Shown here: positions 37,284 to 63,041 of the stretch, piece by piece | How positions within the stretch are numbered: position 1 is the first letter of the stretch | Layout: every line of letters begins with the position of its first letter | Assembly (NCBI GenBank): GCA_000004985.1 | Contig: GG738883.1 | Reading direction: 5' to 3' (one strand) | DNA: 64,000 bases | From: Naegleria gruberi | Lineage: Eukaryota | Translations under genes and position numbers: made by a program | Notes under the pieces: generated by a model | Seen by the model: the letters and a program-made list of their open reading frames with translations, nothing else | Told to the model about the DNA's origin: nothing | The model's database searches: none

Positions 37284-37298
37284 TTTTTGGCGCCAAAA
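37284..37298. promoter_or_regulatory. Palindromic E2F-like element TTTTTGGCGCCAAAA
   Basis: A GC palindrome in AT-rich promoter DNA, about 150 bp upstream of the minus-strand gene that starts at 37139. It matches the E2F consensus TTTSSCGC in both orientations. Confidence 0.4.
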
Positions 37299-37547
37299 TT
37301 CTTAAAATTAATCTGAAAAATGTATTATTTGATGTAAGCGGTCTTGGACTGCAATTATGATACAATCAGGAGGGAGGTTGAAAAGGTGAAAAATATTGAT
37401 GAAGAATATGAACACACTCATAGGTTATCAGTCCGAACAATCTGAAATGTTTCATTTCACAAGATCGTTTCCAACATAAAGTAAAATCCGCATTATTTTT
37501 TCAAATGCAAATGAAATTTTTAATTTATTTAAGAAATACGTTTACGT

Positions 37548-38318
37548 TCAAAAACATCCAACCTCAATTATTAATCCAAAAAAAACACAGCACGGAATTG
37601 ATAAAAATATCATACCTACTGTAAGTCCAAAAAATGAAATGGTTATAAGAAATACCGAGAGTTTTCGATAAATTATTGAATAGGAAATTGCAAAGAAATA
37701 ATCATTGTCATCATTATAAAAACAAGGCACCTTTGCACCCGCATTCATTTCTACTGACATTGTGGAATTCTTAAATGTAGCAATCTTTGGGGAAGGAATA
37801 TAATTGGTTTCGTTCTCAATTTTGGTTACATTGCAACTACTTCCAACAAATGTTTCATTATATTTGGATGAGGGAAAGTATTTCTCAGTCGTAAAGAGTG
37901 TTGAATTATGAGTTGTTACAAACATTTTCACAAATAATCCTTTTTCCCACTCATCACAACCTCTACGTTGTTTAGCACAGTATGAGGCAATATAAAGATT
38001 GCAATCTGACACTTGGCATTCATGTTCCGGCGCTGTATGGACCAGAATACTAAAGTAAAGGAAAGTGAAGGAGACAATTATAAATACTATTAAAGAAATT
38101 ATTCCTATGATGATAACGTTGATGATATGTCCATGTAATCTCTTCTTATGTCGTAATAATAATTCTTTGTTCTTTTTCCAATTTTCTGTTTCGGCAACAA
38201 CAGAATAACAACTCTTGTTAATTTGTGCAAAACTTGCATATGAATCTATTGAAAGAAATCCAAGTATCAATGTTAATTCATCAGAATTTAATTTATGAAA
38301 GGGAAGTGTCATTAACAA
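37548..38318 (-). CDS. Hypothetical F-box-like, transmembrane protein
   Basis: The N-terminus (LNSDELTLILGFLSIDSYASFAQINKSCYSVV) is F-box-like. Two or three hydrophobic helices follow. Confidence 0.4.
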   Translation of the reverse strand: MLMTLPFHKLNSDELTLILGFLSIDSYASFAQINKSCYSVVAETENWKKNKELLLRHKKRLHGHIINVIIIGIISLIVFIIVSFTFLYFSILVHTAPEHECQVSDCNLYIASYCAKQRRGCDEWEKGLFVKMFVTTHNSTLFTTEKYFPSSKYNETFVGSSCNVTKIENETNYIPSPKIATFKNSTMSVEMNAGAKVPCFYNDDNDYFFAISYSIIYRKLSVFLITISFFGLTVGMIFLSIPCCVFFGLIIEVGCF

Positions 38319-38832
38319 TTTCTATTGGATGCACGTTTAAATTATGGAGGGTGTGCTTAATTGTATTGGTGTTTTTTTGACATGCAAATCCATCTCATTT
38401 GACTTTTTAAAATATTCTTTAATATAAATGGAATATTTTAAACGAGTAGTATGCCACACAGTAACGCACTCACAGTAGTGGCATATTTTTTTGGGATGTC
38501 TACAAGTCAGATATACAGGTGTTGAGAAAATAAGAATTCATGGATTGGATGAGAAATACTCAGTTATTGTTGAAATTACTGAGTTCCCTTTTACATATTG
38601 GAACGATAAATTTCTTTCGTCACAACTACGTCATCATTTGCTTCAACGGATACTTTCCAATCCCAAAATAGAACCAAAAGGTGTATTACTTGCAGAGAAC
38701 AATATTTATTACGCGCTCCGAAGGCGGCAACTTCAAATAAAATCAAACAAAAAAAAAGAGTTCAAACCAAACAACGAAACTCTATTGTAAAATAGCTTAG
38801 AATATATTATTTAAAAAAATATTTGATCAAAA

Positions 38833-39527
38833 ATGTCGTTAGTGAGTGGTGATTATAGACCATGGGATTATGATATCCTTGTTAAAGTATTGATTATTGG
38901 TGATTCTGGAGTCGGGAAGAGTTGCTTACTTGTTCGTTATAGTGATGATGATTTCTTTGAATCACATCTTACAACTATTGGAGTTGATTTTAAAATTAAA
39001 ACACAAACATTACCAGATAATAGAGTAGCAAAGATACAGTTGTGGGATACTGCTGGTCAGGTAAGTTTTTATTTCTAATATTTTCTAATAATTTCAAATA
39101 GGAACGATTCAATTCTATTGTGTCTGGATATTATAGAAGTTCAAATGGTATTATGATTGTATTCGATTTGACTGATGAACAATCTTTTAGAAATGTCAGT
39201 AAATGGCTTGATCAAATTAAGAAACATGGTGATCCTTCGGGTCCAATGGTTCTTGTTGGAAATAAGGCTGATTTAACATCAAAGAGAGTTATTGATTCTC
39301 AATTAGGAAAGGAATTAGCCAAGAATTTAGGAATTGAATATATTGAAACGAGTGCAAAGAGTTCACAAGGTGTTGAACAAGCTTTTGACAAAATGTTACA
39401 AGCAGTTGTAAAGGCTCAAAACTATATTGAAAGTGGACCAAAGAAGGACGATAGATATTCGAATTCTTCATCTTCCCTGGTGGTGCAAGGACCAAAAACT
39501 CCTTCTGGTAGTACTTGTAATTGTTGA
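38833..39527 (+). CDS. Rab-family small GTPase; 2 exons
   Basis: Exon 1 is 38833-39060 (...WDTAGQ|GTAAGT). The intron is 39061-39101 (41 nt, ..AAATAG). Exon 2 is 39102-39527 ([12 protein letters not shown]...). Motifs are G1 GDSGVGKS, the RabF region, NKADL, ETSAK and a C-terminal CNC prenylation motif. The track's 'M' at 39120 is a GTG alternative start inside exon 2. Confidence 0.85.
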
Positions 39528-40161
39528 GTTTAAGTAATAAAACAATTCATTTTACAAAAGTTTTATCATGTCCAAAGTATGATTCATAGAATTTTGGACG
39601 ATAATTGGGAGAACAAGTGTACACTAGTTTATCAGACGAGAAAAACAACCTTTCAAGTGAAAACGCAAAACTAATTGAGAAAGTTGAAAATCTTTCAAAT
39701 GAAAATAATAATTTATTGGAAAGAATCAAATTATTGGAACAAGAACTGTCAAAATTAAAACAATAATGTATTTATTTGGTTTTACATCAACATTATTAGT
39801 GAATGGATTGAGCAAGTTTTTGATATTCTTAAAGAAGAGGAACATCTCCATTAGAAATTGTTACAAAATATATTCGAATATATTCGAAAGAGGAAGAAAC
39901 TCAATTGTTGAACTTCATACTAATTATTCTCAAAATAGCCCCGATTTCTAGAAATCAATTGAACAACAAAAGCACTTGAAAATGTCAGGAGCTTTTAATA
40001 AATGGCAAAAAGATGAATTCAAACAATAAAATTACTGGAAATTCATCCTTTTTCAATTTTTCAGAGATCTGTTGTTGATATTTCGGGAAAGTGAACTTGA
40101 TTACAAGTTCCAGAATTATACTAATTACTAATACTAATGCAAAACAATAATTTTAAAAAAA

Positions 40162-40671
40162 ATGTGGCTGGAAGATCTAGTGTACGATATAATTTATGAT
40201 GTAATGGAAGAGCGGAAGAAAGAAAATTCACTCCAAGGCAATGTTTATATTTGGGATATTGTAAAACAAGTTCAAGAGATTATTCTTGAAAAAGGTGAAG
40301 AAACTTATTGGATGGTGGGAAATCCAATTGTTGAAGAAGAAATTTATGAGGAAATTAAACGAGAATTGAAAGAATTAAAAAAACAAGCTCGAGAGGATGA
40401 GGAAGAAGTGGAAATTGAACGAGATTTTAAAATTATGAATAATATAGATGAATATGATGATGATTATGATGATGAAGAAGAATTTGAAGGAGATGAAGAT
40501 TATGATGATGAGGAAATGAATGAGGATTTTGATGATGAAGAATATGAACCAGAAATGGAGGGAGAAGAAGTCAATTCACAAAAAAGAAATAGAGAAGAGT
40601 ATGGAGATTGGGCAGATTTTGGTAAACCAGCAAAGAGTAAAAAGTTCAATATAATATATATAAAGGAATGA
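40162..40671 (+). CDS. Highly acidic D/E/Y-rich protein (169 aa)
   Basis: A-run Kozak context. Contains DEYDDDYDDEEEFEGDEDYDDEEMNEDFDDEEYEPEMEGEE. No domain recognised. Confidence 0.4.
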   Translation: MWLEDLVYDIIYDVMEERKKENSLQGNVYIWDIVKQVQEIILEKGEETYWMVGNPIVEEEIYEEIKRELKELKKQAREDEEEVEIERDFKIMNNIDEYDDDYDDEEEFEGDEDYDDEEMNEDFDDEEYEPEMEGEEVNSQKRNREEYGDWADFGKPAKSKKFNIIYIKE

Positions 40672-40881
40672 CCACCAAAATGAAATATATCAAAATATAT
40701 TGCAAAACCATCTTGCTTGACAAGATATGAATCACTTTGTTTCGCAGTTAGTGCAATCTCTTTAATTCAGAAAACTACTAATGTAGTTTGGCACTTTTCA
40801 AACCTCTATCATCCAAGAATTCCATAATTATCTTATTAAAAATTTTGGATTATTCAAAAATATAATATTTAGCCAAAATCA

Positions 40882-40968
40882 TCCGATGAGACGGAATCGA
40901 ACCGCCGACCACAGGATTACAGTGTTTCTTGCTACAGTCCCATGCTCTACCAGCTGAGCTATCATCGG
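40882..40968 (-). tRNA. tRNA-Tyr (anticodon GTA) with a 14-nt intron
   Basis: The reverse complement folds as CCGATGA..GCTCAGCTGGTAGAGC..TGGGA-CTGTAG[CAAGAAACACTGTA]A-TCCTG..GGCGG-TTCGATT-CCGTC..TCATCGGA. The intron sits 3' of position 37, as is canonical for tRNA-Tyr. Confidence 0.85.
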
Positions 40969-41107
40969 TACATGTTTTTAAATAAAGGATGAAATATTTT
41001 ATTGTAACTCTAAAATAAATTATTGGAGAACACAATGTCCTTCAAATGGATTGTAGATGATGATTGCTTAGCTTTGTTGTAAATAAGGCGATGATTGTAT
41101 TAAGTGA

Positions 41108-41180
41108 GCCCGTCTAGCTCAGTCGGTAGAGCGCAAGGCTCTTAACCTTGTGGTCGTGGGTTCGACCCCCACGGTGGGCG
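41108..41180 (+). tRNA. tRNA-Lys (anticodon CTT)
   Basis: GCCCGTC-TA-GCTC-AGTCGGTA-GAGC-G-CAAGG-CTCTTAA-CCTTG-TGGTC-GTGGG-TTCGACC-CCCAC-GGTGGGC-G. This is a canonical cloverleaf. Confidence 0.9.
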
Positions 41181-41370
41181 ATTTCTCTTTTATGTTAATA
41201 AGCATTTTTTAATTTTCTCTGACTTATCAAATTGTCTTAACTTTACCAAATATTCCAATAAATTCAATTTACTGAGCTTTATGTTCTTATAAGCATCTAC
41301 TATTTTGATTATTTCAACAATAATTAAATATTAAATTAAATTATATTAATTAAAAAATATTTGAATTTAA

Positions 41371-41676
41371 AAAACATTAGTCTGACTCCCAGATTTCACT
41401 CTCTGTTAGCTCATGCTCAGTTCTGCAATCTGACCATCATACAGTGTGAAGGCTATGATTTGCTCAGTTATCCTGCCTCAACCGGTTCACCTTTCATTAG
41501 GACCCTAGTTTCTCCTTTTTCATGGGGAGGTACTATGGTCACACCGCTATTGGCGCAGACAGAACATCGTCACCATATTGCTAACAGAGGAATGAGTCTG
41601 AAGAACCATCCCTTTGCCTGACGCTGTGGCAGAGAACCATCACAGCTACCTCCCTACAGTAGCCCAGCTTGTCTTT
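41371..41676 (-). ncRNA. 7SL: Signal recognition particle RNA (7SL/SRP RNA)
   Basis: The minus strand reads ...GCUGGGCUACUGUAGGGAGGUAGCUGUGAUGGUUCUCUGCCACAG... with Alu-domain helices 3 and 4. It continues ...CAAUAUGGUGAC..., a 12-nt identity to human 7SL. Then comes ...GGUGAACCGGUUGAGGCAGGAUAACUGAGCA..., which in human is GGUGAACCGGCCCAGGUCGGAAACGGAGCAGG in S-domain helix 8. A T6 terminator follows; on the + strand it is the A-run at 41369-41374. The ends are good to about ±10 nt. ORFs 41361-41621(+) and 41581-41835(-) overlap it and are spurious. Confidence 0.75.
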
Positions 41677-41789
41677 ATCATCAATTCTCGAGTGTGTAAA
41701 GGTAAAAATCTTGGAAAATATTAAATAAATGTGGTTTTCAAAAATATGATCAAAAAGATGGATCAGTGGCTTAATGAGGATAGTTACTA

Positions 41790-42435
41790 TTATTGATCCT
41801 TGTTCTTGTCTTGGTGAGGTTCTTCTTCCTTCCAACCCTTTTCAAAGGTGTTGGTATCGACACGATCTCGTGTAAGTTCTAATTGTAATTCTTCATCATG
41901 ATTCAAATTCTTTAAATTCCAACTGAAGGTGGTTCGTTGCTGGTGAGATAATTCACTACTGTGAATACCAGTCTTGGAGTAGTACTTGCTACTCAACTTT
42001 CCACTGTTCCATTTCTATATGAAATTTAAATTCCTCTTCCGAAATCGAAAAACTAACCTTGATAAACTTTTTAAAGTAATGTTGTATTTCCTCTGTATTT
42101 TCCAAATCATCTTCAATTCTCAACTTTTTATTATTTAAAAGCCACAATCTAAATTCCTGATTTTTCCTATAATAATCATTCATTGTTAATTTTTCAATTG
42201 GTGATGAAGTTGTTATTGTAGATGATGAAGAAACATCTTCTCTTTTCTGTATCTTCTTATTCAACTTTTCCAATTTCTTTTCCAATTTCCTCTTCTTTTT
42301 ATCCTCTTCATGGTCGGAATTTTCTGATGATTTATCTTCCTCATCTTTATACTTTCTCTTCTCGGCTGTCTTTTCCTTCTTTCCCATTTTTTCTTCTTTA
42401 CATTCTTGATGATTAATCCTTTTGAAAAACATCAT
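41790..42435 (-). CDS. K/E/S-rich charged (probably nuclear) protein; probably 2 exons
   Basis: ORF 41989-42435 (basic/acidic, KKEKTAEKRKYKDEEDKSSENSDHEEDKKKRKLEKKLEKL) and ORF 41790-41996 can be joined through a candidate intron of about 72 nt (GTTAGT...CAAG). Boundaries are uncertain. Confidence 0.35.
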
Positions 42436-42572
42436 CTAATCACCAATTGTCATTCAGTAGGCCTAAAATCCACTAATAGTAGGAGATACATACGAGAGAG
42501 CTACAACTTTTTCCAACCGTCCATGTGCCTGATGAATATCAATCATCATGTAATAATCACATACCTTCTTAA

Positions 42573-43983
42573 TTGATTGGTCAGCAAAAGAATCAAAAGA
42601 TGAAAAAAATGTTTTCCATCTCACGGGTCTCTGCCGTGAATGAAGAGAATGGTCTGAGCAATGTTTTACAATCATCAGTCAATAATAATACTACAAACAA
42701 TAATACTAATGTACAATCTCAAGTAGTAGTTGGATCAGGAAGTGGGACAATGCCTGTAACCACTACATCATCACCATCAAATAATATACCAGCCGATCCA
42801 CAAGAAATTAAAAAGAATAATCGATTGACAGTGATACAAAGTAATAATCAGAGTTTCTATAGCAATATGAGTAGTGCAACAACAACAGAAATTAATTCGG
42901 ATAGCAAGTTGAATCAATTGTCGACTTTGTCAACAGAGGAAGGAAGTAGTGGAATTTCAAGGAGAACAACACCATCATCACAAACTTTTGGAGAGGGAGG
43001 AATTGAAGGATTGTCAAATTTAGGGAGAAGAGGAAGAAGAGGATCTTTAGAACATGAAGTTAAACATCCAGTGGCTCTTTCTAAAACTCTAGATCAAAAA
43101 GTACCACTGATGGAATTTATCGTTCAAAAGAGAGTTGAAAATTTGGAATATATCAGGAAATTCCATGAAGGCCAAGTGTTTTGGATGAATACTGTCAAGG
43201 TCTCTCCTTCAGAAATTGAAAAGGCCTATCAATCACAAACATTACAAAAGAGATTGGAACAATGGTTTACTTTAGGCATGTCAATGGCTCCACTTATACA
43301 AATTGATAATGGATATGAATTTGTTAGAGCATGTTCACAATTATTAGAAGAGTTTGAATACCACTTTTCTAATATGGCTGTTCAAGGAATGAAAATTCTC
43401 AAAGCATTTACCAATAATTTTGTCGATGATGACACTCCACCTGTAATTACCTCCCAAAAGACAATCAAACCGTCCATTCACAAATCTAATGGTTCAGTTG
43501 TTTACGAATTTTTGCAAACACCAAATATTGTAAGTTTTAACGAATTGCAATATTCTAATAACCACGGTTTAGCCCTGTACACTTGATTATTGTCAAATAA
43601 TTTTCTCTCTTTGTGACCTTCTGATATTTGTATATAGAAAGTTTCTCGATGAAGCTAATATTGGGTCATCTCTACATGAATACATTGTGAAATTAGATGG
43701 AAAAATTAAGGTACGTATTTAGTCAACAAACCAATTTAATATTTCAAATTATTATAATATTTCAAATTATTAATAATTCGAATAATAATTTAGAATAATT
43801 TTATTGGATTGATTTCAAGAGATATTAGTGCTCTAGCTATACAGATTGTAAAAACCAAGTTATCAAATGTACAAAATATGTTTTCATTGACACCTCAAGT
43901 AAACAATCAACCTATTACTAAACGTAAAGGTGATGCTGATGATTCCCAAAAACAGAAGGATGTCGATGAATGGTTTGTAATAT
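42573..43983 (+). CDS. Hypothetical protein with S/N/T-rich N-terminus; multi-exon, 3' exons tentative
   Basis: The main exon is 42573 to about 43529 (...FLQTPNI|GTAAGT). Candidate downstream exons are near 43626-43710 and 43800-43983 (...KRKGDADDSQKQKDVDEWFVI*). The splice phases were not fully verified. Confidence 0.35.
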
Positions 43984-44022
43984 AATTGTGGCCACTCGTT
44001 AGTAAAATTAATGTTGTTTCAC

Positions 44023-44852
44023 TCAAAACGTTTGTTTGAATGTAAAATTTAAAATGGAGAGAGTAACTTGGTCCAAATCTCTTGCGGAATCCAAATTTTC
44101 ATCATTTAACAAGTAACTCAACTTGCTCTTTTCACTTGTTGGCACGTCCAAATCAATATCTTGGGTTATGGATCCACATTGTCCAGGCCAACGCCCAATT
44201 CCAAGCTCATAGTATCTTCTTTTCAGCTTTAATGATTAAAATTTAATGTTAGGAATTCAAAAATAAAATTTTTTGTACATACTGTACTCAAAGAAACACC
44301 AAGACAATTTGCAGCCGTAGATTGTGGTAAAGCCATCACTCGAATTAATTCAAAAACTGGAATCTTAATCTTAGACTTCTTCTTAGAATCTGGTGTATAT
44401 TTGGATTTGTGGGTGGAGGAGGAAGTAATCTTTGCATGCTTTTTGTTAATACTACTCTTCTTTGTCTTGTTTGGTTTGGAAATGGAGGAAGTGGATGTGA
44501 TAGAGTTCTTTCTTGATTGTCTGTGACTTTGGTCATGAGTGGAAGAGGATGAATTGGAAGAAGGAGAGAAAGAGCTGTCTGAATCATCGTGTTGGGAACT
44601 GGAGGAAGAGATTGGAGAATGGATGGTAGATTTAGATTCATGAACTGTCGATGTTGGTTGACACATTACTCTAATTGCAGCTGGAGAAGGAGGTGAAATA
44701 TTCTTCAAATGAGTACTGTTACTCGTTGTAGAAGTTGTGGAAGTTGTCATTTCAAAGTGATGATGATCTTGTATTGTTGTTGATAGAGAGTTGTCTTTTT
44801 GATGATGATAGAATGTTTCAGTGGCTGGTCTATTCTTCAAATAATTTAACAT
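44023..44852 (-). CDS. RWP-RK domain transcription factor; 2 exons
   Basis: Exon 1 is 44852-44283 (Ser-rich, ends ...AANCLGVSLST|GTATGT). The intron is 44227-44282 (56 nt, ..TTAAAG). Exon 2 is 44226-44023 (LKRRYYELGIGRWPGQ...). The spliced product reconstitutes the RWP-RK signature LGVS.T.LKR....GI.RWP. The track's unspliced ORF reads through into the intron instead. Confidence 0.65.
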
Positions 44853-45828
44853 TTTAAGGTAGTGATGGTTGTGTGTTACCTCGTTACGAGATTATATTTT
44901 GTTACTTGGTTGGGTATTAATTGCAATGGCTCATTCAAAAGTTTTTGCGTTCTGCTTGCAATCTAGTGAGAGAGAGGAATTTCTGGTTGAACTGCAGCTA
45001 GAAATGGTCTTGTTTTTTTTGTCTTATTGTTGCGAAACAGTGTGTGAGTTGGAGGTTATATTTAAGAGAGAGGGATCATCTCACCTCATCGTTCTGCTGC
45101 TCACATTAAAATTGATCGACGACAACAACAGTGGTGCAATAACTGCGCTAATGGCGATCATCAATGTTGCAACTTCTCCGAATCCCTCAATGCAAATCCT
45201 ATTTGTTCAATTAATCGCGAGCATCAGCATAAAAGCACAAAATATCAAGCATTTGAATTTGACCGCCGCCTCTAATTGGCTCAAGGCAGTTGAATGGTCG
45301 TTCTTCCAAATAATGTGTCTTCATTTGAGCTTCAGTTGATACATTGTAGTTTCATTATTGTATTAGAAACGAGAGAATCGTAGATGAGATGATGATAAAA
45401 GACTCCTTCAGTTTGAATATTTGAATTAGTTTCAACTGCATTTCTGTTGGAAAGGAATTGCATTGCCGTATTTCCATTCTTATATTTTGTGAATGTGCTC
45501 ATCAGGATGCAATAGATAACCAAGGAAAATCCAAACAAACGGGTTGATTAATTGAAATTAATACTCACTCATAGGATGGCTGGAATTTTTGGCGCAACTA
45601 AAGGGCTTTTGGAAACCCGAAAAAAAACGTCCTCGCAGTGCTCTCTAAATACGTTAGTTCATCCGCACAATTCAAAATACCATCTAATAATTTTAAAGCA
45701 GAACTACAACAATGTTCCAAGCAGGCAGCTTGAAACCTTAACCATGTATCGATCCTATTGAGGTAAGGGAACTTTGAGTTCATTGAATTACTATAAGGTG
45801 GTCATAAACACCACAAACCATGGTTTAT

Positions 45829-47162
45829 TTACTTTCTAGTTGGTTTCCTAGTATTGTGTGAACTCGTTTTCTTCGAGGAAGGAGCCACACTAGTTGATTC
45901 TACCTTAGATTGGAATGAGCATAGAGTGGCAAACATCTCTCGGTAATCCTGTTCCTTCTTCAAGCCTAGCTCTACAACATTATTCTTCAAATCATTGACA
46001 GTCATATTCTTCTCAATGTATTCCTTAATCAACTCGATTGTGAACTTCTTCAATTCACTATCGGTAAGGTCATTGTCTGAGAGTTCTTCAGCAATTTGAG
46101 AAAGTTGTGCATTCGATTCAATGGTACATTCGTGCCATGTCTTATTTTTGAGCTGTTTGTGGAGCTCAGAAACACTCATTACAGTATTCACAGATTCCTT
46201 GATCTTTTTACATTCTTCAATAAACTTTTCTTCACTCTTTTGTTTTTGTGTTTGTTTCTTGAATTGAGATACAAGTGATGTCTTTTCATGTGAAGTCTTT
46301 TCTAATTTTTCCATTAGAACACATTGGTTTTGTTTCATGGTTTGATATTCACTTTCAACCTTCTTGTAATGTTTGTGAGCTTTCTTTTGTTGCTTCTTGG
46401 TTGCCATTAATTCACGTTTCAAAGCAGTGAGTTCAAGTTTCAGATCACAATTTTCATTCAATAGCTTTTCAATTTGCTTTTGTGTATCAATTGACAAGGT
46501 TTCCTTGACAGTAGTTTTCTTCATGACATTTGGATGTTCAACAGCTTGATTTTCCTTATTGGACATCTTTTCAGGTTGAGATGTAGGAGTATTTGTTGTA
46601 GTTATTGGGGGAGTAATTGCGCTAGTTTGAGTAGTTATTGGAGGTGTTGATGTTGTTGGGAAGTTTACATGTTTGTTGGCAACTGTAGATGGGATGGGTT
46701 TCTTCAAAATTGGTTTTGGAGACTTTTCTGTCTTTTTACCAATTGGTTGTTGATGCATAGAGTCAATCTATCAATTTCAAATGATATCATTCACCAAAGA
46801 AAATTCCGAAATATTGCACAGATAATATTAACATGACACACAACAGAAGAAGAGGATCCACAACCACGGTCGGATAAGGATCATATTACAATAATCATCA
46901 TCACACAATATTCCATCATTATTAATTTAAATATACATACCTCCCTCATCAAATCATCCATAGAATCATCTCTTAAAATTGAATAATCATCACTGTCCAC
47001 ACTACTCGTTGGTGATGGTGGACAATTTTCTGTATCGGTCTTGTCTAGGATGGATTGTTCAAGGAGTTGATCTTCAGGCTCCAAGCCAGAAGAATCAACT
47101 TGTGTATTATTGTTTTGAGCAATGTCAAACCCGGCAAAGTCCTCAACAGATCTTGTACTCAT
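45829..47162 (-). CDS. Coiled-coil protein; 2 exons
   Basis: Exon 1 is 47162-46941 (...DDLMRE|GTATGT). The intron is 46768-46940 (173 nt, ..TTGATAG). Exon 2 is 46767-45829 (IDSMHQQPIGKK...). There is a long heptad-rich region (LKLELTALKRELMATKKQQKKAHKHYKK...). Confidence 0.5.
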
Positions 47163-47206
47163 ATTTTTTTATGTGATTTTTTGTTTGGTGAATTTAAAAC
47201 TGATGA

Positions 47207-47227
47207 AATTGGCGCCAACTTTAAAAC
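47207..47227. promoter_or_regulatory. Palindromic E2F-like element AAATTGGCGCCAACTTTAAAA in a bidirectional promoter
   Basis: The core TTGGCGCCAA is at 47209-47218. It lies about 50 bp upstream of the minus-strand gene starting at 47162 and about 170 bp upstream of the plus-strand gene starting at 47389. Confidence 0.4.
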
Positions 47228-47388
47228 GTAACGACTTTTTAAAAACCTTCACATCTATCATCAAAAGATTTTTAATTCAACACAAAGAAAATGATTACTT
47301 TAGGAATGCAATCGGGTACTTGATAATAATCAAACAATCAAGGTTCACCTTCCTATTAATTTATTAATCGTCATACAATGAACTTGTT

Positions 47389-48411
47389 ATGAAATTTGTC
47401 AAGATGAAAAAAATACAACAAACAAAGAGGAAGAGAGAAGATATTGTTCTCGATTTATCCAATGTTTCTCCCAATGGTAAATGGTGGACCGCTCCGAACA
47501 TTGTTCATCTCGTATTAAAATATTTACCAGTTAAAGATATGATCCAGGGCAAGACATTGTGTAAGAATTGGTTCAAGGTGATGAATCATCAATTTGTGAG
47601 AGAGTATGTGGCTAGTTTCTTGGAGTTGGATGAAGACAACTTGCAAGATCTTGAAGTCATGATGAATACCTTCAAAACAGAGAAGAAAATGGTTTCCTCT
47701 TATGAGGCTATCATTGAACAATTGAAAGAATTAGATAATAGTAATGATTATTCTGAGAGTGTAAGATCACTATTGAGTAAATATGAAAAATCTCACAGTT
47801 TAGACCTTTTGAAAGAAATCTCAAAATTGACAAAGAAAGAAATCAGAAATCAGAACTCGTTGTCGTTGGAACCACCAAAAATTGTTATTGCTGAAAATGA
47901 GTACAATTGTCAAAACTATGGCAGCATTCGGTCTATTCTATTGTCACAAGATTTGAATTCTATTGAGCAATATGGTCTCAATGTCACAACTATTGAAAAG
48001 AGTTACTTTATTGTGTTAAGTAATGGTTATCCTATGAAGCTTAATTTTGATTATAAATGTGGAAGATATGATGGTCATTACAAAGTTGAAGTTAATGGAA
48101 CTAAAGCTATCAGGTTGAAATGGTTTGAGGGTGGATTTGAGGAGAATCATAACTGGGAATTTATCAAATTACTGAAAAAGGGGTTGGATTTCAAGTCAGA
48201 TACACCAATTGAAGAGGATACGGTATTTCTAACAATACTTTTTGCTTGGTTAATACAGCTTTTCCCAGAGGCAACAAATTATGAAATACCAGACTCATGT
48301 TTTGGAGAATCAATTCTTGTCTATTCAGATTTGGGTGAGGATAATAGGCTGTTTGCTGATGATAATTCAGAAAATGAGGAAGGCAGTAACAAGTACGATT
48401 CAGATGAGTAA
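47389..48411 (+). CDS. F-box-like protein (340 aa)
   Basis: N-terminal F-box-like helix bundle (LVLKYLPVKDMIQGKTLCKNWFKVMNHQFVREYV) and an acidic C-terminus. Confidence 0.45.
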   Translation: MKFVKMKKIQQTKRKREDIVLDLSNVSPNGKWWTAPNIVHLVLKYLPVKDMIQGKTLCKNWFKVMNHQFVREYVASFLELDEDNLQDLEVMMNTFKTEKKMVSSYEAIIEQLKELDNSNDYSESVRSLLSKYEKSHSLDLLKEISKLTKKEIRNQNSLSLEPPKIVIAENEYNCQNYGSIRSILLSQDLNSIEQYGLNVTTIEKSYFIVLSNGYPMKLNFDYKCGRYDGHYKVEVNGTKAIRLKWFEGGFEENHNWEFIKLLKKGLDFKSDTPIEEDTVFLTILFAWLIQLFPEATNYEIPDSCFGESILVYSDLGEDNRLFADDNSENEEGSNKYDSDE

Positions 48412-48506
48412 AATATTGGCGCGCTTTTGAAACTTTGCAACCATCCAAAATAAGAAAGTCACAACATACTTTGAAACCCACACAAATATGTTTAGAATAA
48501 CAAAAA

Positions 48507-51144
48507 ATGAAACAGCTTACTCTGCTATTTATTTGCTTGCTACTTTCTGGTTGTTGTTTCTGCTTTGTGGATCCTTTCAAAATCAACTCTTCATATTATG
48601 TAGTTCAATCCTTGTCTGAGTCATCATTCGGAATGACTGCCTATCTGAAACTGTCCAATAACAGTGGTGGACCATACGGAAACGATATAGAAGAGTTAAA
48701 AGTCTCTATTCAATACAAATCTTCAAAAGTGTTAAATATCAAGATAACTGACAAGGAAGAAAAAAGATGGCAAGCTTCTCCCTTCGTTCTATCGAAAGAA
48801 CAATCAAAAGTTTCCTCTATGAGTACAAGTTTAGATTATAGTGTGGAAATGTCACAGGTTGGAGAAGAATTCTACTTTACAATTCTAAGAAAATCCTCAA
48901 GTATTCCAATATTCACAACGAAAAGGACTTGGTTTGTATTCAGTGACCAATATATTACATTAGGAACTCAATTATTCTCTTTACCAAATGGAGAACCTCC
49001 TTATTTGAGCGGTTTTGGTGAAAGAGTTGATAACATCTTTCTCAATATTACAAATAATGAATTTATAATGTGGAATAATGAGTAAGTTTTTAACCTTTTG
49101 GAAAATGTTTCTAAATTTTCAAAGTCATGACAATCAACCACATATGAATCTCTATGGAAGTCATCCATTCTTCCTCTATTCTGGACCAAGCTCTCCATCA
49201 TTTGGTGTTTTCCTTCTCAATAGTAATGCTATGAGTGTGAGAACTGAATTTAACAATCAAAACAAGTATTTACAATATCAAGTGATTGGTGGCGTTTTGG
49301 ATTTTTACTTCTTCCTTGGACCTTCTTCGCAAGATGTCATTAAACAATATCATTCAATTATTGGAAAACCATACTTGCCTCCAAAGTTTGCACTTGGATT
49401 TCATCAATGTAGATGGGGATACAATAGTTTGGATGAAATTAAGAAAGTAGTTGCTGGATATGAGGCCAATAATTTACCATTGGATGCAATTTGGACAGAT
49501 ATTGATTATATGGACAAGTATAGAGATTTCACATTTGATCCTGATCGTTTTCCAATTCAAGACATGATACAATTTGTTTCTGATTTGCATAAGAAAGGTA
49601 AAAAGTATATTCTCATTATCGATCCTGGTATTCCAGTTGTAAATTTGAATCAGGAAAAGTATGAACCTTTAGAATTGGGACTTTCTCTCGATATTTTCAT
49701 CAAGAATGGCAATAATAATTCCTATGTGAATAGAGATGTCTGGCCTGGCCAATGCTACTTCCCAGATATGACCAACCCCAAATTCAAGGACTATTTCTGG
49801 AAGCCACTCATTCACAAATTCCTCTCCACCTTAAATATTGATGGATTGTGGACAGATATGAATGAACCAGCTGTATTGAAAACCTACACACCCAATCAAA
49901 ATAAGTGGAACTATCCTCCATTCGTACCAAGATCGCCAGCTGTTCACGATCCTAATGAACCTATTTTCCATCGAACTATTGACATGGATTCGAGAATGCA
50001 CGCCTCAATCCATTACAATGTCCACAATTTATACAGTCATTTGGAGTCAATTGCAACATCAGAAGCTCTACAAGATTTCTATGGAAAGAGATCTTTCGTA
50101 TTAACTAGAAGTAGCTTTGCTGGAAGTGGATCTCATGTTTCTCATTGGACAGGCGATAATGAGTCAACATACGAAAGCATGAAGAGTTCAATTCCATCAA
50201 TTGTTATGAATGGAATGTTTGGTTTTTCACATGTTGGATCTGATATTGGTGGATTCTATTTGAACACAACTAAGGAACTTCTTATTAGATGGATGCAATT
50301 AGGATCCATGTATCCATTCTCACGTAACCATAATGCACGTGGAACTATTCCTCAAGAGCCATATGCCTTTGATAAGGAAACTACAGACATTTCAAGAAAA
50401 TTCCTTCAATTAAGATATCAACTTATTCCATATTTGTATACACAAATTGCACTAGTTAGTAGAGATGGAGGTTCAGTTGCAAAACCACTTTCTTTCGTAT
50501 TTCCAGATGACAGACAGTGTTATCAAATAGAAACTCAACTCATGTTAGGAGATTCCTTAATCATTGCTCCAGCATTAAATCCATCACAGTCAATGGTCAA
50601 TGCCTACCTTCCTTACAATGCTATTTGGTATGATTACTTGACAGGTAAAAGAATTACCAAAACGGGAGGTCTATATTTCTCATTACCTTCTCCTCTTGAT
50701 TCAATGCCAATTATCATGAAAGGTGGAAGTATCATTCCTTTACAAACTCCATCGCTTAATACTTTACAACAAGAATTTAATCCATATCAATTGAGAATTG
50801 CACTCAATCAAGAACAGCAGGCAAGGGGAGAGTTGTGGCTTGATGATGGTGAAAGTTTGGGAACAATTGAGAAGAAACTTTATACATTACTCAAATATGA
50901 CATGAAAAATAATGGAAAAGTTTACAAGTTGACTTGTGAAAGGTTAATTGGAGGATATGATGAAAGAAATTTGAGTTTGAATGGAATTACCATCTACGGC
51001 ATTGAACAACAACAAATTTCGTTCATTTCAATTAATAATCAACCAGTAGATTCGTATAACTTTGATCCTTCGAATGGTTTATTAGAAATTAACAATATTC
51101 ACTCTGAAATTTCTTCAATTTCTGTAGTTTTACAATTTGCCTAA
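48507..51144 (+). CDS. Glycoside hydrolase family 31 alpha-glucosidase; 2 exons
   Basis: Exon 1 is 48507-49081 (signal peptide, ...FIMWNN + ga). The intron is 49082-49124 (43 nt, GTAAGT..CAAAG). Exon 2 is 49125-51144 (D HDNQPHMNLYGSHPFF...). GH31 motifs are GFHQCRWGY, IDGLWTDMNEP (WiDMNE catalytic nucleophile region) and HWTGDN. Confidence 0.85.
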
Positions 51145-51234
51145 AAGGATTCCAAATAAAGAGCCCATTGTCAGAACTGCTCATCAATTATCATTGATCT
51201 ACACCTGTCAATTTCAGTCTTTAAAAAAATTATT

Positions 51235-54200
51235 ATGCATGTTTGGCTTTTTTTGATCCTCTTACTCTCGCTGAGTTTGCTGGTTCGTTTTTCAACGTCG
51301 GCCACATCATCAACCACATCACAGTATTCCTCTTCTTCCTTCGTTTCATTTCTTAACAATCGAATATATAATCAAACTAATTATTATCCGAAACGATTTA
51401 TTCAATTCTCTGAACATGAAACTACTCATGATCATATTAAAAGACAACAATCACAGTTGTCATCATTAGAATCGCCACCATCATCATCTATAAACAAAAT
51501 TGATTTTAATGACTATAGTTTCCTACTAACTAATAATCAAAACTATACTTCCGATTATCCATATATTTCTCCATTCAATTCCACCTATTCTTTACCACCT
51601 TGCTGTACTACCCTAAACGGAAATGAAAATGCCCTATTCGAAACTAAAAAGCTATTAAACATGGCTAAAAACACAAAACGAATTGAAATGGAAAAATGCA
51701 GAAATGCAGCACTTGATAGTATATTCGGATTGGATTGTGTTGTCATTGAATTGGAATATATATTGGAGAATTCGACGAGTTCTGAACTGAGGAGGAATTC
51801 AGTGAATGGTTCAATGGAAAGTATTCGAAATGAAACTGTTTATTCATCACTTGATGAAATATATCAAGTATTTAAAAGAGATGTGACGATAATTGCTGAG
51901 AGAGAAAATCAAAAATCAGCATTTTCGTATAAAAAGATTCCTGAGGGAATTATTTCACTGAGAGTACGTGTCTTGTCAGATATGGTGAACGAGGAAAATT
52001 GTACTCTTCAAATGGATATTGGACAAATATTCAATTCATCATCGATTAGAAGACCTATTGCAGATTATAAGGTATTCTTTGAATTGTACAGTGAAAATCA
52101 AAGACATGAATTATATTGCAGAGTTAATGTTGATAGTTCTCTGTTTTTTTCAACATTTAGAGGATTGACTTTACGTTTGGTAACACATAATTTGAGTTAT
52201 TATGCAGAAAGGGTGACATTTCTTAGTGGAGCACTAAATGGAGGATTATTTGCTGTTTATTCACAGGTGGAATTGAGGCAGAATATACTCTTTTCACAAA
52301 CACGTGTTACTTTATTTGAAGAATTGAATTATTTTGGACAAAATTGGATTCTTCAAAGAGATAATTCAAATAATATTAATGCAATTTTTGTAGATAGTAA
52401 TATGACAGTGTATTTCGAAGACGTTCTTAAAGGAAGAAATATGTGGTTTCTGAATACAACTTTAGAGATTGATAGTGAGTTTTTGATTGAGGAAGTGAAT
52501 GAAATTTTGATTCACAAATGTACTATCAAATCGAAAGGAAATACTTCGGATAGAGATTTTGCAAACTTGCAAATATCATTTGCGAATATTGTTGAAATTC
52601 ATAGTACAGTATTCGAAACAGTAAATGGAAAGACCATTTTAGGAATTGGTGAAAGTATTGATGTCAACCTCATTGATACACATTTCACTGATCATAGAAA
52701 TGAAGCTGGCTCTCTAATTTACATGAAGAATCTAAGAAATTTGGTGATTTCCAAATCTCATTTTTTGAGGAATTGGGTTGGTTCAAGTGTTCTCTTCCTC
52801 AGTAACATAATTGCGGGTTTTATTAGTGATTGTAGATTTGAAGAAAATGAATCTGTTATATCAAATGGTATAATCTTCGTTCAATCTGCTGGATCTTTCA
52901 AAAGGGTGCTGATTAGCTCATCTATTTTTATTAGAAACAGAGCGTATGATCGTGGAGGATGCATTCATGCCTCTGATACTTCAGTTCACGTTCACTTTAG
53001 TGAATTTCGTGAAAATTATGCTCCTTCAGGAAGTGCTATCTATGCACAAGAAACAGAGCTCTCAATTGAAAGCTGCAATTTTATTGATAATTATTCAGAG
53101 ATGAGTGGTGGAGCTATTTTTATTAATGGCAATTTCAGTAGTGTTAATTCAAACTTTTACAATAACTCTGTGAATTTGAAATCAAATTATCCATGCACGT
53201 CATATTGCAGTGGAAGTGGAGGAGCCATTTCGTATGCATCTACAGAATTAGATACAATTCAGCTCTTTCTTGTTGATTCCAAATTCGAGAATAATAGTGC
53301 TATTAGAGGTGGAGCTCTCTCTATCAAGTACCTATCCAATACTCCAAAAATTACTTGGGAATCCGTCAAGATTTATAATAATTATGCCAAATCTGGAGGT
53401 GGAATATTTTTCTTTGAATTGATTGACAACAAAATTCTATCATCCACATTCGAAAGAAATAGAGCTGACTTTTATGGAAATGACATGGCTTCTTCCACTA
53501 GGTCAATTGAGTGGAATATTATGGGAAAATCACCAAATTCTCAAATAAGTGTGTTCCCAGGGCAGACTTTTTCCCTCAAGACATTTACTAAGGATTATTT
53601 CGGAGCTAATATTGGAGATTTGTGGGAGTATTATATTTTGACTGTGAATGATACACGATTTAATTTAAAAAAACCCACTCAAACTAATCGAAATGACACC
53701 ATTGAGGGTTTGTTCATTTACAGTACAAAGATTCAAACTGAGCCAACATATATTCGGTTGTGGATTGATTTTTCACAATCCTTTAGTTATTTGGATATTC
53801 TAGTTAAGGGGTGTCCTGAGAATTATGAATTGATTTCTGCTAATTATGGATCAGAAAATTCCTATATTTGTCAAGCTGTGCCAAGTGTAACTGTTATTAT
53901 TATAACAGTTGTTGTTTCTTCATTTGTTGCATTTTCAGTCTTTGTTATTGTTTCTACAATTTTGGGATATGCCATTTTCAGATTAACAAAAAAGCTCTTA
54001 TATTGGAAAGAAAGAATTAAGGTGGAGAAGGATGTAGAAAAGAGACTATTCGAAAGTGGAATAAGGTGTACGAAAGAGGAAATCAAAGCATCAGGCGAGT
54101 ATAGTCTTGCAAGAAAAAATGTTTTCATTATTGGTCTTGATCAGGTTCACATTGAAAAGAAAATTGGAGAAGGTAAGTGTATCATTCAACGCATGTTTCT

Positions 54201-55214
54201 AATAACCTATTATTAGGAGGAGCTGGTTTCGTTTACAAAGGAAAGTGGAATCACAACACAGTTGCCATCAAATGTCTAAGAGTGGAGGGATCAGAAAGCG
54301 AATTTCTCAGTGATGAAATTGAGAGAGAGGCAACCCATTTGTCTAAACTCAGACATCCGAATGTACTCATGTTCTACGGTATTTCTGTAACTCCACAAAA
54401 ACACTATTTGATTATTGAATATTTGGAAAAGGGAAGTTTGGAAAATTTAATAATTGAAAGTAGGAAACATTCATTATTGAATTTGGAAATGAAATTGTCA
54501 ATCCTAATTGACATTGCATGTGGAATGGAATATTTACACTCTTCACATATTATTCATCGTGATCTCAAGAGTGGCAATGTTCTCCTTGACGCCAACAATG
54601 TTGCAAAGGTTTGTGACTTTGGATTGAGTAAGATCATGTCCAATTCATGTCAACATTCAACTATTGCTAATGTGGGCACGATTTATTTCATGGCCGTGGA
54701 ATTATTTTCTGAAAAACTGAGCTCCTCCACTGTCATTACACCAGCCATTGACGTTTATAGTTTTGGAATTATTATGCATGAGCTCTTTTTCGAGGAACGT
54801 CCCTACAATCTCTCAAAGAATAGCAAATTATTAATGTGGAAGAATGAGCAAGAGACAATCACATCTCCATTCGCAATGCTACCAAGAATTATCAAAGGAG
54901 AAAGACCCTTCATTCCATTTGAGGATGATTATAGTATGGATGAGTATTTGCAAATGGCTGTACCTGAATATCGTCGAATGAATAATTCTAGTTTGGTGTC
55001 CTTGATCAAGATGGAAAAGTACAGACAAGTTGTAACAGATTATATTGAACTAATGACCAAGTGTTGGAGTGGAGAGCCAACAGCTCGTCCCAATTTCACA
55101 ACTGTCAATGAAACTCTCCAATCTATGAAACGTAAATTGAAAGAAATTGGAAAACATGACGAGCAAGTAAGTGGTTACAAAAAGTTGGTGGACGTAGAAC
55201 TGGAAATGAAGTAA
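51235..55214 (+). CDS. Receptor-like Ser/Thr (TKL-like) kinase with a Pmp-type beta-helix ectodomain; 2 exons
   Basis: Exon 1 is 51235-54172 and the intron is 54173-54216 (44 nt, GTAAGT..TATTAG). Exon 2 is 54217-55214. The intron splits the glycine loop as IGEG|GAGFVYKGKW. Signal peptide MHVWLFLILLLSLSLLVRFSTSA. Ectodomain repeats are RGGCIHASD, SGGAIFING, SGGAISYAS, RGGALSIKY and SGGGIFFFE, with FxxN units FRENYAP, FIDNYSE, FYNNSVN, FENNSAI and FERNRAD. TM segment VIIITVVVSSFVAFSVFVIVSTILGYAIF. Kinase motifs are HRDLKSGNVLL, DFGLS and DVYSFGIIMHE. Confidence 0.8.
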
Positions 55215-55225
55215 TATATTACTAT

Positions 55226-56977: not shown

Positions 56978-57189
56978 TTTTTTGGATCCGAAAAGACAAA
57001 TAAAGAAAAGACTTGATTAGACTTTACAATTTGATTTTGATTGAGAAAGTAAGCCATAAATAATATGTTTGCATGGGTTGTTTCCTCTAGTTTATCAATT
57101 CCAATAAACTGGGTTTTTGGCTTTAGTTTTGTTGTAGCACAAACTGGAATCTCATGTCAATTCAATCAATTATTTCAATTTGAAAAAAA

Positions 57190-58542: not shown

Positions 58543-58630
58543 CAGTTTTTAGAAATGTCTATTAGTAAGGATAATATGTAAGGATGTAAATGCATTCTGC
58601 TTGGTTTAGAGAAATAGTTAAAGAAGAGTT

Positions 58631-60523: not shown

Positions 60524-60921
60524 TTTTCTGTGTTTGATGTTACAAAAAAAGGAGCGAGCCTGTGTACCATCTCCTATTCAGTTTACTACACAACGGATTG
60601 TGAATTGCAATGATAATCTAAATGGACATGTTGCATCTAATGGAGAAAGGAATGGAATAATGAAATCCATTCTTATAATCAAAATATTACAGGTACCAGA
60701 AATTTATGCTTAACTCACCTCAATTTCGTAAAGATCTTAAAACTCCTGGCGTGTGCTTTCGGTACGACCGAGGTCTTGGATTCGATTCCCAACAAGGAAG
60801 GCATCTTTTTGGTTTGGGTCCAAGTAAAAGAATTTATTCTTCAATTATTGAATAATAATTCCCAATACAATCTATCTCAGGTATCATTCATTCCGGAATA
60901 ACACCTTTTATGTTTTAAAAA

Positions 60922-61995
60922 ATGTCTGCATTGAGTCCACTCATTATCCCTGTCATCAGCAATATCGCAAATATTTCCCAATATCTTCAAGAAGATAATG
61001 ATTCAAAGAATTTACAGCTCAAGTTTGTTAATTATAGCAATCCGATCGAAGTTTTGAATTCTGGATTTGAAATTATTGTTGCTGATGGTTATTTGCTCAC
61101 TCCGGAATTTTGGCAAGCTTTTCATCACCAACTTGAAAAGGGAGAATCATCATTGAAGTGGATTAATTGCACATTTGCGGGTGTGAATGCAATTTTTGAA
61201 AATATTAGAAAAACCACTGATTCCTCTAAATTAATTCAACTTTTAATTGAAAATAATATTAGATTGACTAAAATTGGAGTTTTTGGATCACACATGTTTG
61301 AATATTTAATTCAACACATGATGAATGAGTTACGTCATTATGAGAAAGTTTTGGATCATCAATCTCAAAGTTTGTGGGTTGGAAAAACTGCTTTCAATTA
61401 CAAGACATTGGATAGAGTAAAGATTGGTCTATTGGGATATGGTAATATTGGAAAGTATATTTGTGAGACTTTCAAGAAAATATATCCAACCATTAAGATT
61501 CACATTTATAGAAATTCTCAAGTTGTTGAAGAATCCCAATATCAACCAGACAAGTTCTTCTATGGTAGTGAGCAATTGGGCGATTTTATTTCATCATGTG
61601 ATTATGATTTCCTTATCAGTATTTTACCATCTACTCCTGAAACTAGATACATGCTCAATACTGATGTTTTAGAAAAGTTACAAACTCGTTCACAATGCTG
61701 CTTTATTAATGTTGGAAGAGGAGATTTAATTAGTGAATCAATGGTAGTTGAGGCTCTTGATAAGAATCTCATTAGAAAGGCCATTTTAGATGTTTTTGAA
61801 GTTGAGCCTTTACCAACCACCAGCCCATTCTGGACCAGAAAGGATGTTCTCGTTACTCCACATATTTCTGCACTTTCTATTCCACATACACTTGTGGATG
61901 CCTTCTTCAATAATTTCCACAAAGTTTCAAATAATGATGGATCATTTGCTTTTGAAAAATTGGAATATCAATGTAATTGGAATAAGGGATATTAA
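60922..61995 (+). CDS. D-isomer-specific 2-hydroxyacid dehydrogenase (glyoxylate/hydroxypyruvate reductase-like)
   Basis: Rossmann fold with GLLGYGNIGK. The catalytic region reads NVGRGDLISESMVVEALDKNLIRKAILDVFEVEPLP...VLVTPHISA and carries the R, E and H triad. Confidence 0.8.
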   Translation: MSALSPLIIPVISNIANISQYLQEDNDSKNLQLKFVNYSNPIEVLNSGFEIIVADGYLLTPEFWQAFHHQLEKGESSLKWINCTFAGVNAIFENIRKTTDSSKLIQLLIENNIRLTKIGVFGSHMFEYLIQHMMNELRHYEKVLDHQSQSLWVGKTAFNYKTLDRVKIGLLGYGNIGKYICETFKKIYPTIKIHIYRNSQVVEESQYQPDKFFYGSEQLGDFISSCDYDFLISILPSTPETRYMLNTDVLEKLQTRSQCCFINVGRGDLISESMVVEALDKNLIRKAILDVFEVEPLPTTSPFWTRKDVLVTPHISALSIPHTLVDAFFNNFHKVSNNDGSFAFEKLEYQCNWNKGY

Positions 61996-61999
61996 ACAT

Positions 62000-62884
62000 T
62001 TAAACTTTCATGAAGGATGTCATTTTCAGAACATTGACCACATTTTTCTTACACTCATTGGTTCTCTCCTTATCCATTTCTCCATCAGAATTGAAAATTC
62101 CATATAGTTTATATTGTCTATCAAGTTTCTTTCCATTTCTCAGCTTGATACTTCCAAACATTCTGCATCTTGGGTATTTAACACTATTTGTATCAATGAT
62201 ATCTTCCATGCTCCATGTTGAAGGTTTTCCTGTATATGATGTGCAATTACATTGTTTCAAATGATCAATCAGTCCTTCAAGATATAATCGATACTTTTCA
62301 TTTGATTCTACCATAATTTGAGGAAAGTACAACCTGTAACCAGACTTGTATTTGCAATCTGGTGTTTGGGAATCACCAGCATAAGTACCATGGCAAAATG
62401 TTATGCAACATTCATAATCTGAATTTGGAAAATATTGTTTAGTAAACTCCAAAATTTCCTTCAACCATTGAGATTTAGTCAAGTTGACTGTTTCATTCTC
62501 CTTCAATTTGAAATCCAAATCCAAGTAGAGTTTAAAATTATGAAAAGACCTAATTTCCTCAATGAAAATATCCTGCTTCTTCTCAATAGAATTCTTCCAA
62601 GCATTGAAATATTCCTCCATAATTGTTTCATTTTCCAACTTGACATGATAATGACCACCTCTCTGTGATATATGTGTTGGATTTTGGAAAAGCAATTGTT
62701 TATCTCCAACCACTGAGTGATCATAAATCCACTGCTCCAAATAATCGGATGGTTCATAGGCAAATTCTTGAACTTTTTTGTAAAATTTGATATTGTCAGA
62801 TGGAGAGGGAGTGAACTTGGATGTGTTTCTTGTTGCTGATGATGGCGGCTTGTTGGTGGAAGATGAAGTTTGTCGTGCTTTCAT
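62000..62884 (-). CDS. PrimPol-like archaeo-eukaryotic primase (AEP) domain protein, short form
   Basis: KLYLDLDFK matches PrimPol motif I (human KLYFDLEFN). KYKSGYRLYF sits at the motif-II position (human FSRHLIF), but the His is replaced. DIIDTNSVKYPRCRMFGSIKLRNGKK matches motif III (human DLGVYTRNRNFRLYKSSKIGK). No UL52-type zinc finger is present. An E2F-like palindrome lies about 150 bp upstream. Confidence 0.45.
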   Translation of the reverse strand: MKARQTSSSTNKPPSSATRNTSKFTPSPSDNIKFYKKVQEFAYEPSDYLEQWIYDHSVVGDKQLLFQNPTHISQRGGHYHVKLENETIMEEYFNAWKNSIEKKQDIFIEEIRSFHNFKLYLDLDFKLKENETVNLTKSQWLKEILEFTKQYFPNSDYECCITFCHGTYAGDSQTPDCKYKSGYRLYFPQIMVESNEKYRLYLEGLIDHLKQCNCTSYTGKPSTWSMEDIIDTNSVKYPRCRMFGSIKLRNGKKLDRQYKLYGIFNSDGEMDKERTNECKKNVVNVLKMTSFMKV

Positions 62885-63027
62885 TTTTTTCTTTGTGTTG
62901 TTATTTTAAAGTTGAAGTCGTGAACTTCCAATTTCAACTTTATTCATTTTCAAAGTTGAAAAGTTGCCGACTAAGGATTTGTTTTCATGAAGATGCTAGA
63001 CAATAATAAAGGATTAAATTGTTAAAT

Positions 63028-63041
63028 TGTTGGCGCCAATT
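63028..63041. promoter_or_regulatory. Palindromic E2F-like element TGTTGGCGCCAATT
   Basis: The core TTGGCGCCAA is at 63030-63039. It lies about 150 bp upstream of the PrimPol-like gene that starts at 62884 on the minus strand. Confidence 0.4.

Follow-up and report, generated by a model that had tools for sequence, protein, structure and literature searches.

We describe here a short, GC-rich palindrome, TTGGCGCCAA, in the nuclear DNA of Naegleria gruberi, where it recurs within a 64,000-nucleotide stretch of contig GG738883.1 (hereafter the window). Its three exact copies, at 37287-37296 (site 1), 47209-47218 (site 2) and 63030-63039 (site 3), are probably promoter-proximal candidate binding sites of the Naegleria E2F family. 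An initial annotation of the sequence had counted the same three copies and located sites 2 and 3 correctly, placing site 1 one base off, at 37286-37295. Naegleria is known to have E2F, DP and Rb proteins; no heterolobosean DNA targets are described for them in the searchable literature, and we found there no report of an E2F cis-element or similar promoter motif in Naegleria or other Heterolobosea. An E2F-type element is expected from the conservation of the RRxYD helix by which these proteins read DNA, yet apparently it has not been documented before. The finding thus confirms an expectation and overturns none, the regulatory element being real but unsurprising.

First of all, the motif is strongly over-represented and its copies are confined to particular places. 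The window has a GC content of 33.4% and is gene-dense on both strands, with long open reading frames (ORFs) covering 74% of it. Three copies of TTGGCGCCAA are observed against an expected mean of 0.02, and 0 of 100 dinucleotide-preserving shuffles reach three, so that the count in the initial annotation is borne out. The GGCGCC core is found four times against 0.41 expected, and the half-site TTGGCGC has 11 matches, at eight loci, against 0.91 expected. The most over-represented k-mers of the window, for k of 8, 9 and 10, are TGGCGCCA, TGGCGCCAA and TTGGCGCCAA, respectively, and each of the five SGCGCS hexamers has TT directly on its 5' side. CpG is strongly depleted here (observed/expected ratio 0.44, against 0.84 for GpC), which makes the retention of a CpG-containing motif more notable. 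All eight TTGGCGC loci lie in the 26% of the window outside long ORFs, and six of them fall in the 10% that is both non-ORF and at most 200 bp upstream of an ORF start, as do all three palindromes; promoter position is measured throughout from start codons or ORF starts. All three TTGGCGCCAA sites are 47-146 bp upstream of minus-strand start codons. The promoter position proposed at the outset therefore stands, with the reservation that the gene model at site 1 (~99 bp) is doubtful.

Second, site 2 has a phylogenetic footprint. The divergent intergenic region that holds the site is 225 bp long; the site is 47 bp from the minus-strand ATG (47162) and 171 bp from the plus-strand ATG (47389), upstream of both. 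Its likely target is the two-exon minus-strand gene at 45829-47162, with exon 1 at 46941-47162, an intron at 46768-46940 that starts with GTATGT, and exon 2 at 45829-46767. Under this splice model the product is a protein of 386 amino acids whose N-terminus is acidic and which contains a conserved KEN box and a coiled coil of strong conservation, in agreement with one of the two coiled-coil genes of the initial annotation. A homology search found an N. lovaniensis orthologue of 385 amino acids (54% identity, 98% coverage), and this length and coverage, together with the alignment, support the splice model; the other matches were from Naegleria sp. (metagenome/Logan assemblies), Willaertia magna and a Joint Genome Institute (JGI) metagenome protein. 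In the alignment the KEN box, which is a degron motif of the anaphase-promoting complex/cyclosome (APC/C), is conserved from Naegleria to Willaertia and adjoins the near-invariant coiled coil. A profile search found three representatives of the family among 1.84 billion proteins; judged from such searches, the family is restricted to Heterolobosea. A Pfam search of the protein gave no match, and a PDB match to MafG, a bZIP-like coiled coil (E = 0.02), was weak and was treated as coiled-coil noise. The homology search that returned the N. lovaniensis and W. magna orthologues returned no N. gruberi protein, and the gene seems to have no entry in the protein set of N. gruberi.

The orthologous loci compared were those of N. 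lovaniensis (L003, 21 kb), Naegleria sp. (L004 and L005, 21 kb each), W. magna (L006, 21 kb, 26% GC) and a metagenomic relative (L008, 5.7 kb). In N. lovaniensis the sole GGCGCC of the locus lies 47 bp before the orthologue's ATG (gagaTGGCGCCtttt); in both Naegleria sp. loci it lies 44 bp before the exon-1 ATG (cTGGCGCCAATTTTG), and in the metagenomic relative 49 bp before the orthologue's ATG (cTGGCGCCCAATTTT), being again the sole copy of the locus in each case. The W. magna locus has a single TTTSSCGC match, TTTCCCGCCAA, ~60 bp before the orthologue's ATG, and the site there takes the alternative canonical E2F form TTTCCCGCC, in which GGCGCC has become CCCGCC. When the promoters of the five species are aligned, the CGCC of the core forms an invariant island, and the surrounding DNA has diverged. 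Furthermore, upstream of the coiled-coil gene N. lovaniensis and Naegleria sp. have a gene for a Roc GTPase and N. gruberi has an unrelated gene, and the E2F-like site stays with the coiled-coil gene despite these differing neighbours. The comparison shows purifying selection on site 2 across Heterolobosea, with substitutions that remain within the E2F consensus.

The same promoters contain a second element. In N. gruberi it is CGTAACG at 47227-47233, 8 bp from site 2, with a TAACG core that resembles Myb sites and the plant mitosis-specific activator (MSA) element. All five orthologous promoters have an element of the form AAC(C/A)GTTA(C) at 6-25 bp from the E2F-like site, and in each of them it runs antisense to the gene; its counterparts from the promoter comparison are at 9974-9982 of L003, 9356-9363 of L004, 1989-1996 of L008 and 9946-9954 of L006. 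Its core reads TAACGG in N. lovaniensis, Naegleria sp. and W. magna, TAACGT in the metagenomic relative and TAACGA in N. gruberi. Relative to the E2F-like site, the N. gruberi element is on the side opposite to that in the other species, and neither site 1 nor site 3 has a TAACG(G) element.

Site 3 lies 146 bp upstream of the ATG at 62884, the start of a minus-strand ORF (62000-62884) that is its likely target and is 100% identical to the N. gruberi predicted protein NAEGRDRAFT_50888, from a 371-kb scaffold. The 294-amino-acid product is an archaeo-eukaryotic primase-polymerase, with Pfam matches to PPL4 (E = 4e-67) and AEP_C962R, in line with the PrimPol-like gene of the initial annotation; no credible plus-strand gene start is found near the site. 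The AEP_C962R primase type is named after the C962R protein of African swine fever virus (ASFV). PrimPol-like genes occur as several paralogues in W. magna, and some PPL4 homologues (L002, L009) are fused to or preceded by an MJ1316 domain, which the N. gruberi copy is without. Two of the W. magna paralogue promoters (L009 at ~4860-4900 and L010 at ~4870-4900), which have no E2F-type sites, have in common a CACG...TTTGAA(N0-4)ATTCAAA...ATTGTAA stretch whose TTTGAA is like the animal cell cycle genes homology region (CHR) element, and TTCACG...CAACTTTAAAA stands upstream of the N. gruberi PPL4 gene at a comparable position. The strings are AT-rich, and the likeness among these promoters may be due to chance.

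Site 1 is the core of a perfect 14-bp palindrome, TTTTGGCGCCAAAA (37285-37298), and is the only one of the three with full A/T runs at both flanks; the A/T-run flanks attributed to every copy are thus found here and not fully at sites 2 and 3. Its possible target is a small acidic ORF on the minus strand (36768-37188), with 123 codons from 37139 and a putative first exon of eight codons, the site lying ~99 bp upstream of the putative ATG at 37188. This had been taken for the second of two coiled-coil genes. Outside N. gruberi we found no homologue of the ORF, the sole one coming from another N. gruberi strain. Site 1 is identical in that strain (L007), whose DNA is 97.6% identical overall, so that the identity there is uninformative on constraint.

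Sites 1 and 3 also have in common a motif of the form ACTAAGG-N2-3-TGTTT, a pattern that was defined post hoc. Its two matches in the window, ACTAAGGCTTGTTT at 37249-37262 (+) and its counterpart ACTAAGGATTTGTTT at 62970-62984 (+), both lie between a palindrome and its minus-strand ATG, and both are followed by a similar CAACTT...AAAATG stretch; there is none at site 2. The sharing may be a matter of chance (rough estimate p ~0.02).

Third, the motif fits the known specificity of E2F proteins, as had been proposed. The E2F consensus is GCGSSAAA/TTTSSCGC and the E2F-only preference NNSGCGSN, the GCGC core being read by an invariant RRXYD helix (PMC4862756), and the human E2F1 motif obtained by high-throughput systematic evolution of ligands by exponential enrichment (HT-SELEX) is the palindrome ATTGGCGCCAAA/TTTGGCGCCAAA (PMC5449588). 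Site 1 equals this palindromic optimum, and both of its strands match TTTSSCGC; sites 2 and 3 lack one flanking T and match TTSSCGCS on both strands. The corresponding proteins, which the initial annotation had suggested looking for, are encoded in the genome: in a survey of cell-cycle regulators across eukaryotes that includes N. gruberi, the source data list NgruE2F (with KRRIYDITNVLEGIGLIEK / KRRIYDITNVLEGI), NgruDP (with RRRVYDALNVL), NgruDEL, which has two DNA-binding domains, and NgruRB (Medina et al. 2016, PMC4862756). Both RRIYD and RRRVYD are intact in the NgruE2F and NgruDP sequences of this data set.

The binding factor would be an E2F-DP heterodimer or possibly a two-domain protein of the DEL/E2F7-8 type. 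In this protein family each winged-helix domain contacts one half of the GCGC core through an invariant RRxYD helix, so that a symmetric GGCGCC with TT/AA flanks is an optimal site, usable in either orientation. Occupancy by E2F-DP could then couple transcription of the downstream gene to cell-cycle position, as in animals, plants and amoebozoans, with repression when E2F-DP is bound by Rb and activation when it is free. For Naegleria we infer binding, Rb dependence and cell-cycle periodicity of the target genes. The conserved KEN box of the site-2 protein and the primase-polymerase at site 3 fit a cell-cycle- or replication-linked expression, which is circumstantial evidence. Of the conserved cell-cycle cis-regulatory element proposed by the initial annotation, the E2F-type promoter element is very plausible and is conserved at one gene, and the cell-cycle role is putative.

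Several weaker sites with TTGGCGC or TTTGGCGC probably belong with the three palindromes. Plus-strand ATGs follow three of the five extra half-sites at distances of 82-117 bp: TTTGGCGCAAA at 2442-2452 (+) is 82 bp upstream of the ATG at 2525, which starts an EGF-domain protein gene; TTGGCGCCACCGTTGGCG at 4828-4845 (+) is 117 bp upstream of the ATG at 4945 of an uncharacterised ORF; and TTGGCGCGC at 48416-48424 (+) is 91 bp upstream of the ATG at 48507, from which a GH31 alpha-glucosidase with a signal peptide is encoded. The two variants named at the outset, TTGGCGCCACCGTTGGCG at 4828 and TTGGCGCGCTTTTG at 48416, are among these positions and do exist. Of the remaining half-sites, that at 45589 is intergenic, and that at 41550 was rejected as a transcription-factor site, as it lies inside the signal recognition particle (SRP) RNA gene.

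A number of observations weigh against an E2F reading of all three palindromes. Sites 2 and 3 have two Ts (NTTGGCGC) and not the three of the strict TTTSSCGC, and the N. lovaniensis site (gaTGGCGCCttt) retains the core but not the T/A flanks. None of the canonical E2F targets, such as the genes for MCM, PCNA and ribonucleotide reductase (RNR), is present in the window or in the fetched loci, and the half-sites also precede the alpha-glucosidase and EGF-domain genes, neither of which is an obvious cell-cycle gene. The coding status of the ORF at site 1 is doubtful on sequence grounds: seven of the eight nucleotide differences between the two N. gruberi strains are nonsynonymous and one is synonymous, which makes it unsafe to call this ORF a gene. 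Moreover, conservation, which was to be sought in orthologous promoters, is seen at one of the three sites, namely at site 2 in four other heterolobosean genomes (five with N. gruberi). Site 1 is uninformative in this respect, and for site 3, no E2F-type site is found upstream of any of six PPL4 homologue loci (L001, L002, L009, L010, L011 and L012). These loci, from W. magna and four other contigs, encode proteins 37-49% identical to the site-3 protein, possibly paralogues, and for two of them (L001 and L012) the sequence upstream extends over only 93 and 109 bp.

The palindrome could also be a real, selected promoter element that is read by a different factor, either NF-Y at an overlapping CCAAT or some homodimeric Naegleria factor that binds GGCGCC. 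Palindromes are typically bound by homodimers, and CCAAT does overlap the motif at site 2, at site 3 and at the L004 and L008 sites. The invariant part of the motif, however, is SSCGCC, and CCAAT is missing at site 1 (GCCAAAA), in N. lovaniensis (GGCGCCTTT) and in W. magna (CGCCAACT); the NF-Y reading was rejected on these grounds. In W. magna GG is replaced by CC (TTTCCCGCC), exactly as the S-S degeneracy of the E2F consensus allows, and the site is no longer palindromic; this speaks for a reader of the E2F type and against a homodimer that strictly needs a palindrome. Taken together, we consider another factor unlikely. An NFI reading was rejected as well: NFI, a metazoan family, binds TTGGC-N5-GCCAA with a 5-bp spacer, and the TTGGC and GCCAA half-sites abut here, with a spacer of 0.

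It is much less probable still that a genome rearrangement, or a short mobile or dispersed sequence, left these copies behind as its footprints. There is a segment that, compared with N. lovaniensis, has been inverted or rearranged, and sites 1 and 2 are indeed close to its ends: in N. lovaniensis and Naegleria sp. the Roc-GTPase and coiled-coil genes diverge from an intergenic region that holds the E2F-like site, and in N. gruberi the same two genes are 10 kb apart with their relative order inverted and a palindrome upstream of each. On the other hand, site 1 is ~1 kb from the Roc gene and not at a junction, no homology to the window was detected in the intergenic region between the two genes in N. 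lovaniensis, and site 3 is unrelated to this rearrangement. The distance to the ATG is conserved in five species, which indicates promoter function. When the flanks (300 bp on either side) of the three sites were aligned in both orientations, the scores stayed within the range of shuffled controls; as the flanks are no more alike than shuffled sequence, the palindrome is not a dispersed repeat, and a repeat or mobile-element remnant, the former of which the initial annotation had itself named as a refutation, was rejected, there being no sequence in common beyond the 10-mer core.

Least probable of all, and barely tenable, is a chance or compositional coincidence in which a GC-rich 10-mer happens to be repeated in AT-rich DNA, for although a single 64-kb window holds just three copies, two of them without evidence of conservation, no shuffle reaches that number, all copies are promoter-proximal and one is conserved across genera, so that for site 2 this reading is effectively refuted.

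The other features of the window and of its relatives are as follows. Gene order across 33841-47400 differs from that in N. lovaniensis (L003) and Naegleria sp. (L004). In these two, ~500 bp separate the coiled-coil gene from a divergently oriented neighbour that encodes a Roc-Ank-Roc GTPase; N. gruberi has the block 42573-47162 in inverted orientation, with ~6 kb that carries other genes, the tRNAs and the SRP RNA between this block and the Roc gene. The Roc/coiled-coil intergenic region of the two relatives holds a 133-bp non-coding block (L003 9675-9806, L004 9069-9192) that is 81% identical between N. lovaniensis and Naegleria sp., far above its surroundings, and contains TGATGA and CTGA strings. 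This block could be a small RNA such as a C/D small nucleolar RNA (snoRNA), or a small exon; no counterpart of it was detected in the N. gruberi window. A small-RNA cluster at 40882-41667 comprises the SRP (7SL) RNA gene on the minus strand (41370-41667; Rfam RF00017, 94 bits), a tRNA-Lys(CTT) on the plus strand (41108-41180) and, on the minus strand, an 87-nt tRNA (40882-40968) that is matched by Rfam and not called by ARAGORN, and that may contain an intron. A tRNA-Gln(CTG) is located at 4272-4342 (+). Finally, each of two large genes, at 18537-21446 (-) and 51235-55214 (+), codes for repeats like those of the Chlamydia polymorphic membrane proteins (PMPs) together with a transmembrane segment and, at the C-terminus, a protein kinase domain. 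The second gene consists of two ORFs that overlap, 51235-54216 and 54177-55214, a pattern that points to either a frameshift or a short intron.

Naegleria is now used for studying mitosis and de novo centriole assembly, and RNA-seq of cells in mitotic synchrony has been published. In this setting, a validated E2F-type site with a cross-genus footprint would be a seed for defining an E2F regulon in Discoba and a direct test of the age of the E2F cis-code. It would also flag uncharacterised, lineage-specific genes, such as that for the KEN-box coiled-coil protein, as candidate cell-cycle factors.

How do these sites compare with known systems? Composite cell-cycle promoters are controlled by complexes of the DREAM/MuvB type, in animals through a cell cycle-dependent element (CDE) or E2F site together with a CHR, and in plants through an E2F site together with the MSA element AACGG, which is bound by R1R2R3-Myb proteins. 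The promoter at site 2 is like these in that its E2F-like site is paired with a second conserved element in all five species, and like the plant MSA/Myb system in that TAACGG contains the core AACGG. It differs in that AACGG is complete in three of the five species, that the element has flipped sides in N. gruberi, and that it is not found at sites 1 and 3. We can therefore put forward only tentatively, as a possibility that is more doubtful than not, that the site-2 promoter is a conserved two-part E2F plus Myb/MSA module under joint E2F/R1R2R3-Myb (DREAM/MuvB-like) control. If this were true, Discoba would share the composite promoter logic of animals and plants, which would then probably date back to the last eukaryotic common ancestor, and the KEN-box coiled-coil protein, restricted as it is to one lineage, would count as a new mitotic factor of Heterolobosea.

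The fungal G1/S elements, the Swi4/6 cell cycle box (SCB, CGCGAA) and the MluI cell cycle box (MCB, ACGCGT), which are bound by SBF and MBF, resemble the Naegleria sites as short CG-containing promoter elements whose specificity overlaps that of E2F. SBF/MBF is not found outside fungi, however, and its SBF-only preference is NNCRCGNN (PMC4862756); the Naegleria sites have the E2F-only pattern SGCGS instead. The closest likeness is to the E2F/DP sites of animals and plants (TTTSSCGC / GCGSSAAA, with the optimum TTTGGCGCCAAA). The Naegleria sites have the same SGCGCS core with T-rich 5' and A-rich 3' flanks and are close to the gene start, the genome encodes E2F, DP, DEL and Rb, and the change from GGCGCC to CCCGCC between species follows the S-S degeneracy. 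They differ from the animal and plant sites in having two flanking Ts instead of three at sites 2 and 3, and in adjoining lineage-specific or uncharacterised genes instead of canonical replication genes. On these grounds we provisionally place the Naegleria palindrome in the E2F/DP site family of animals and plants.

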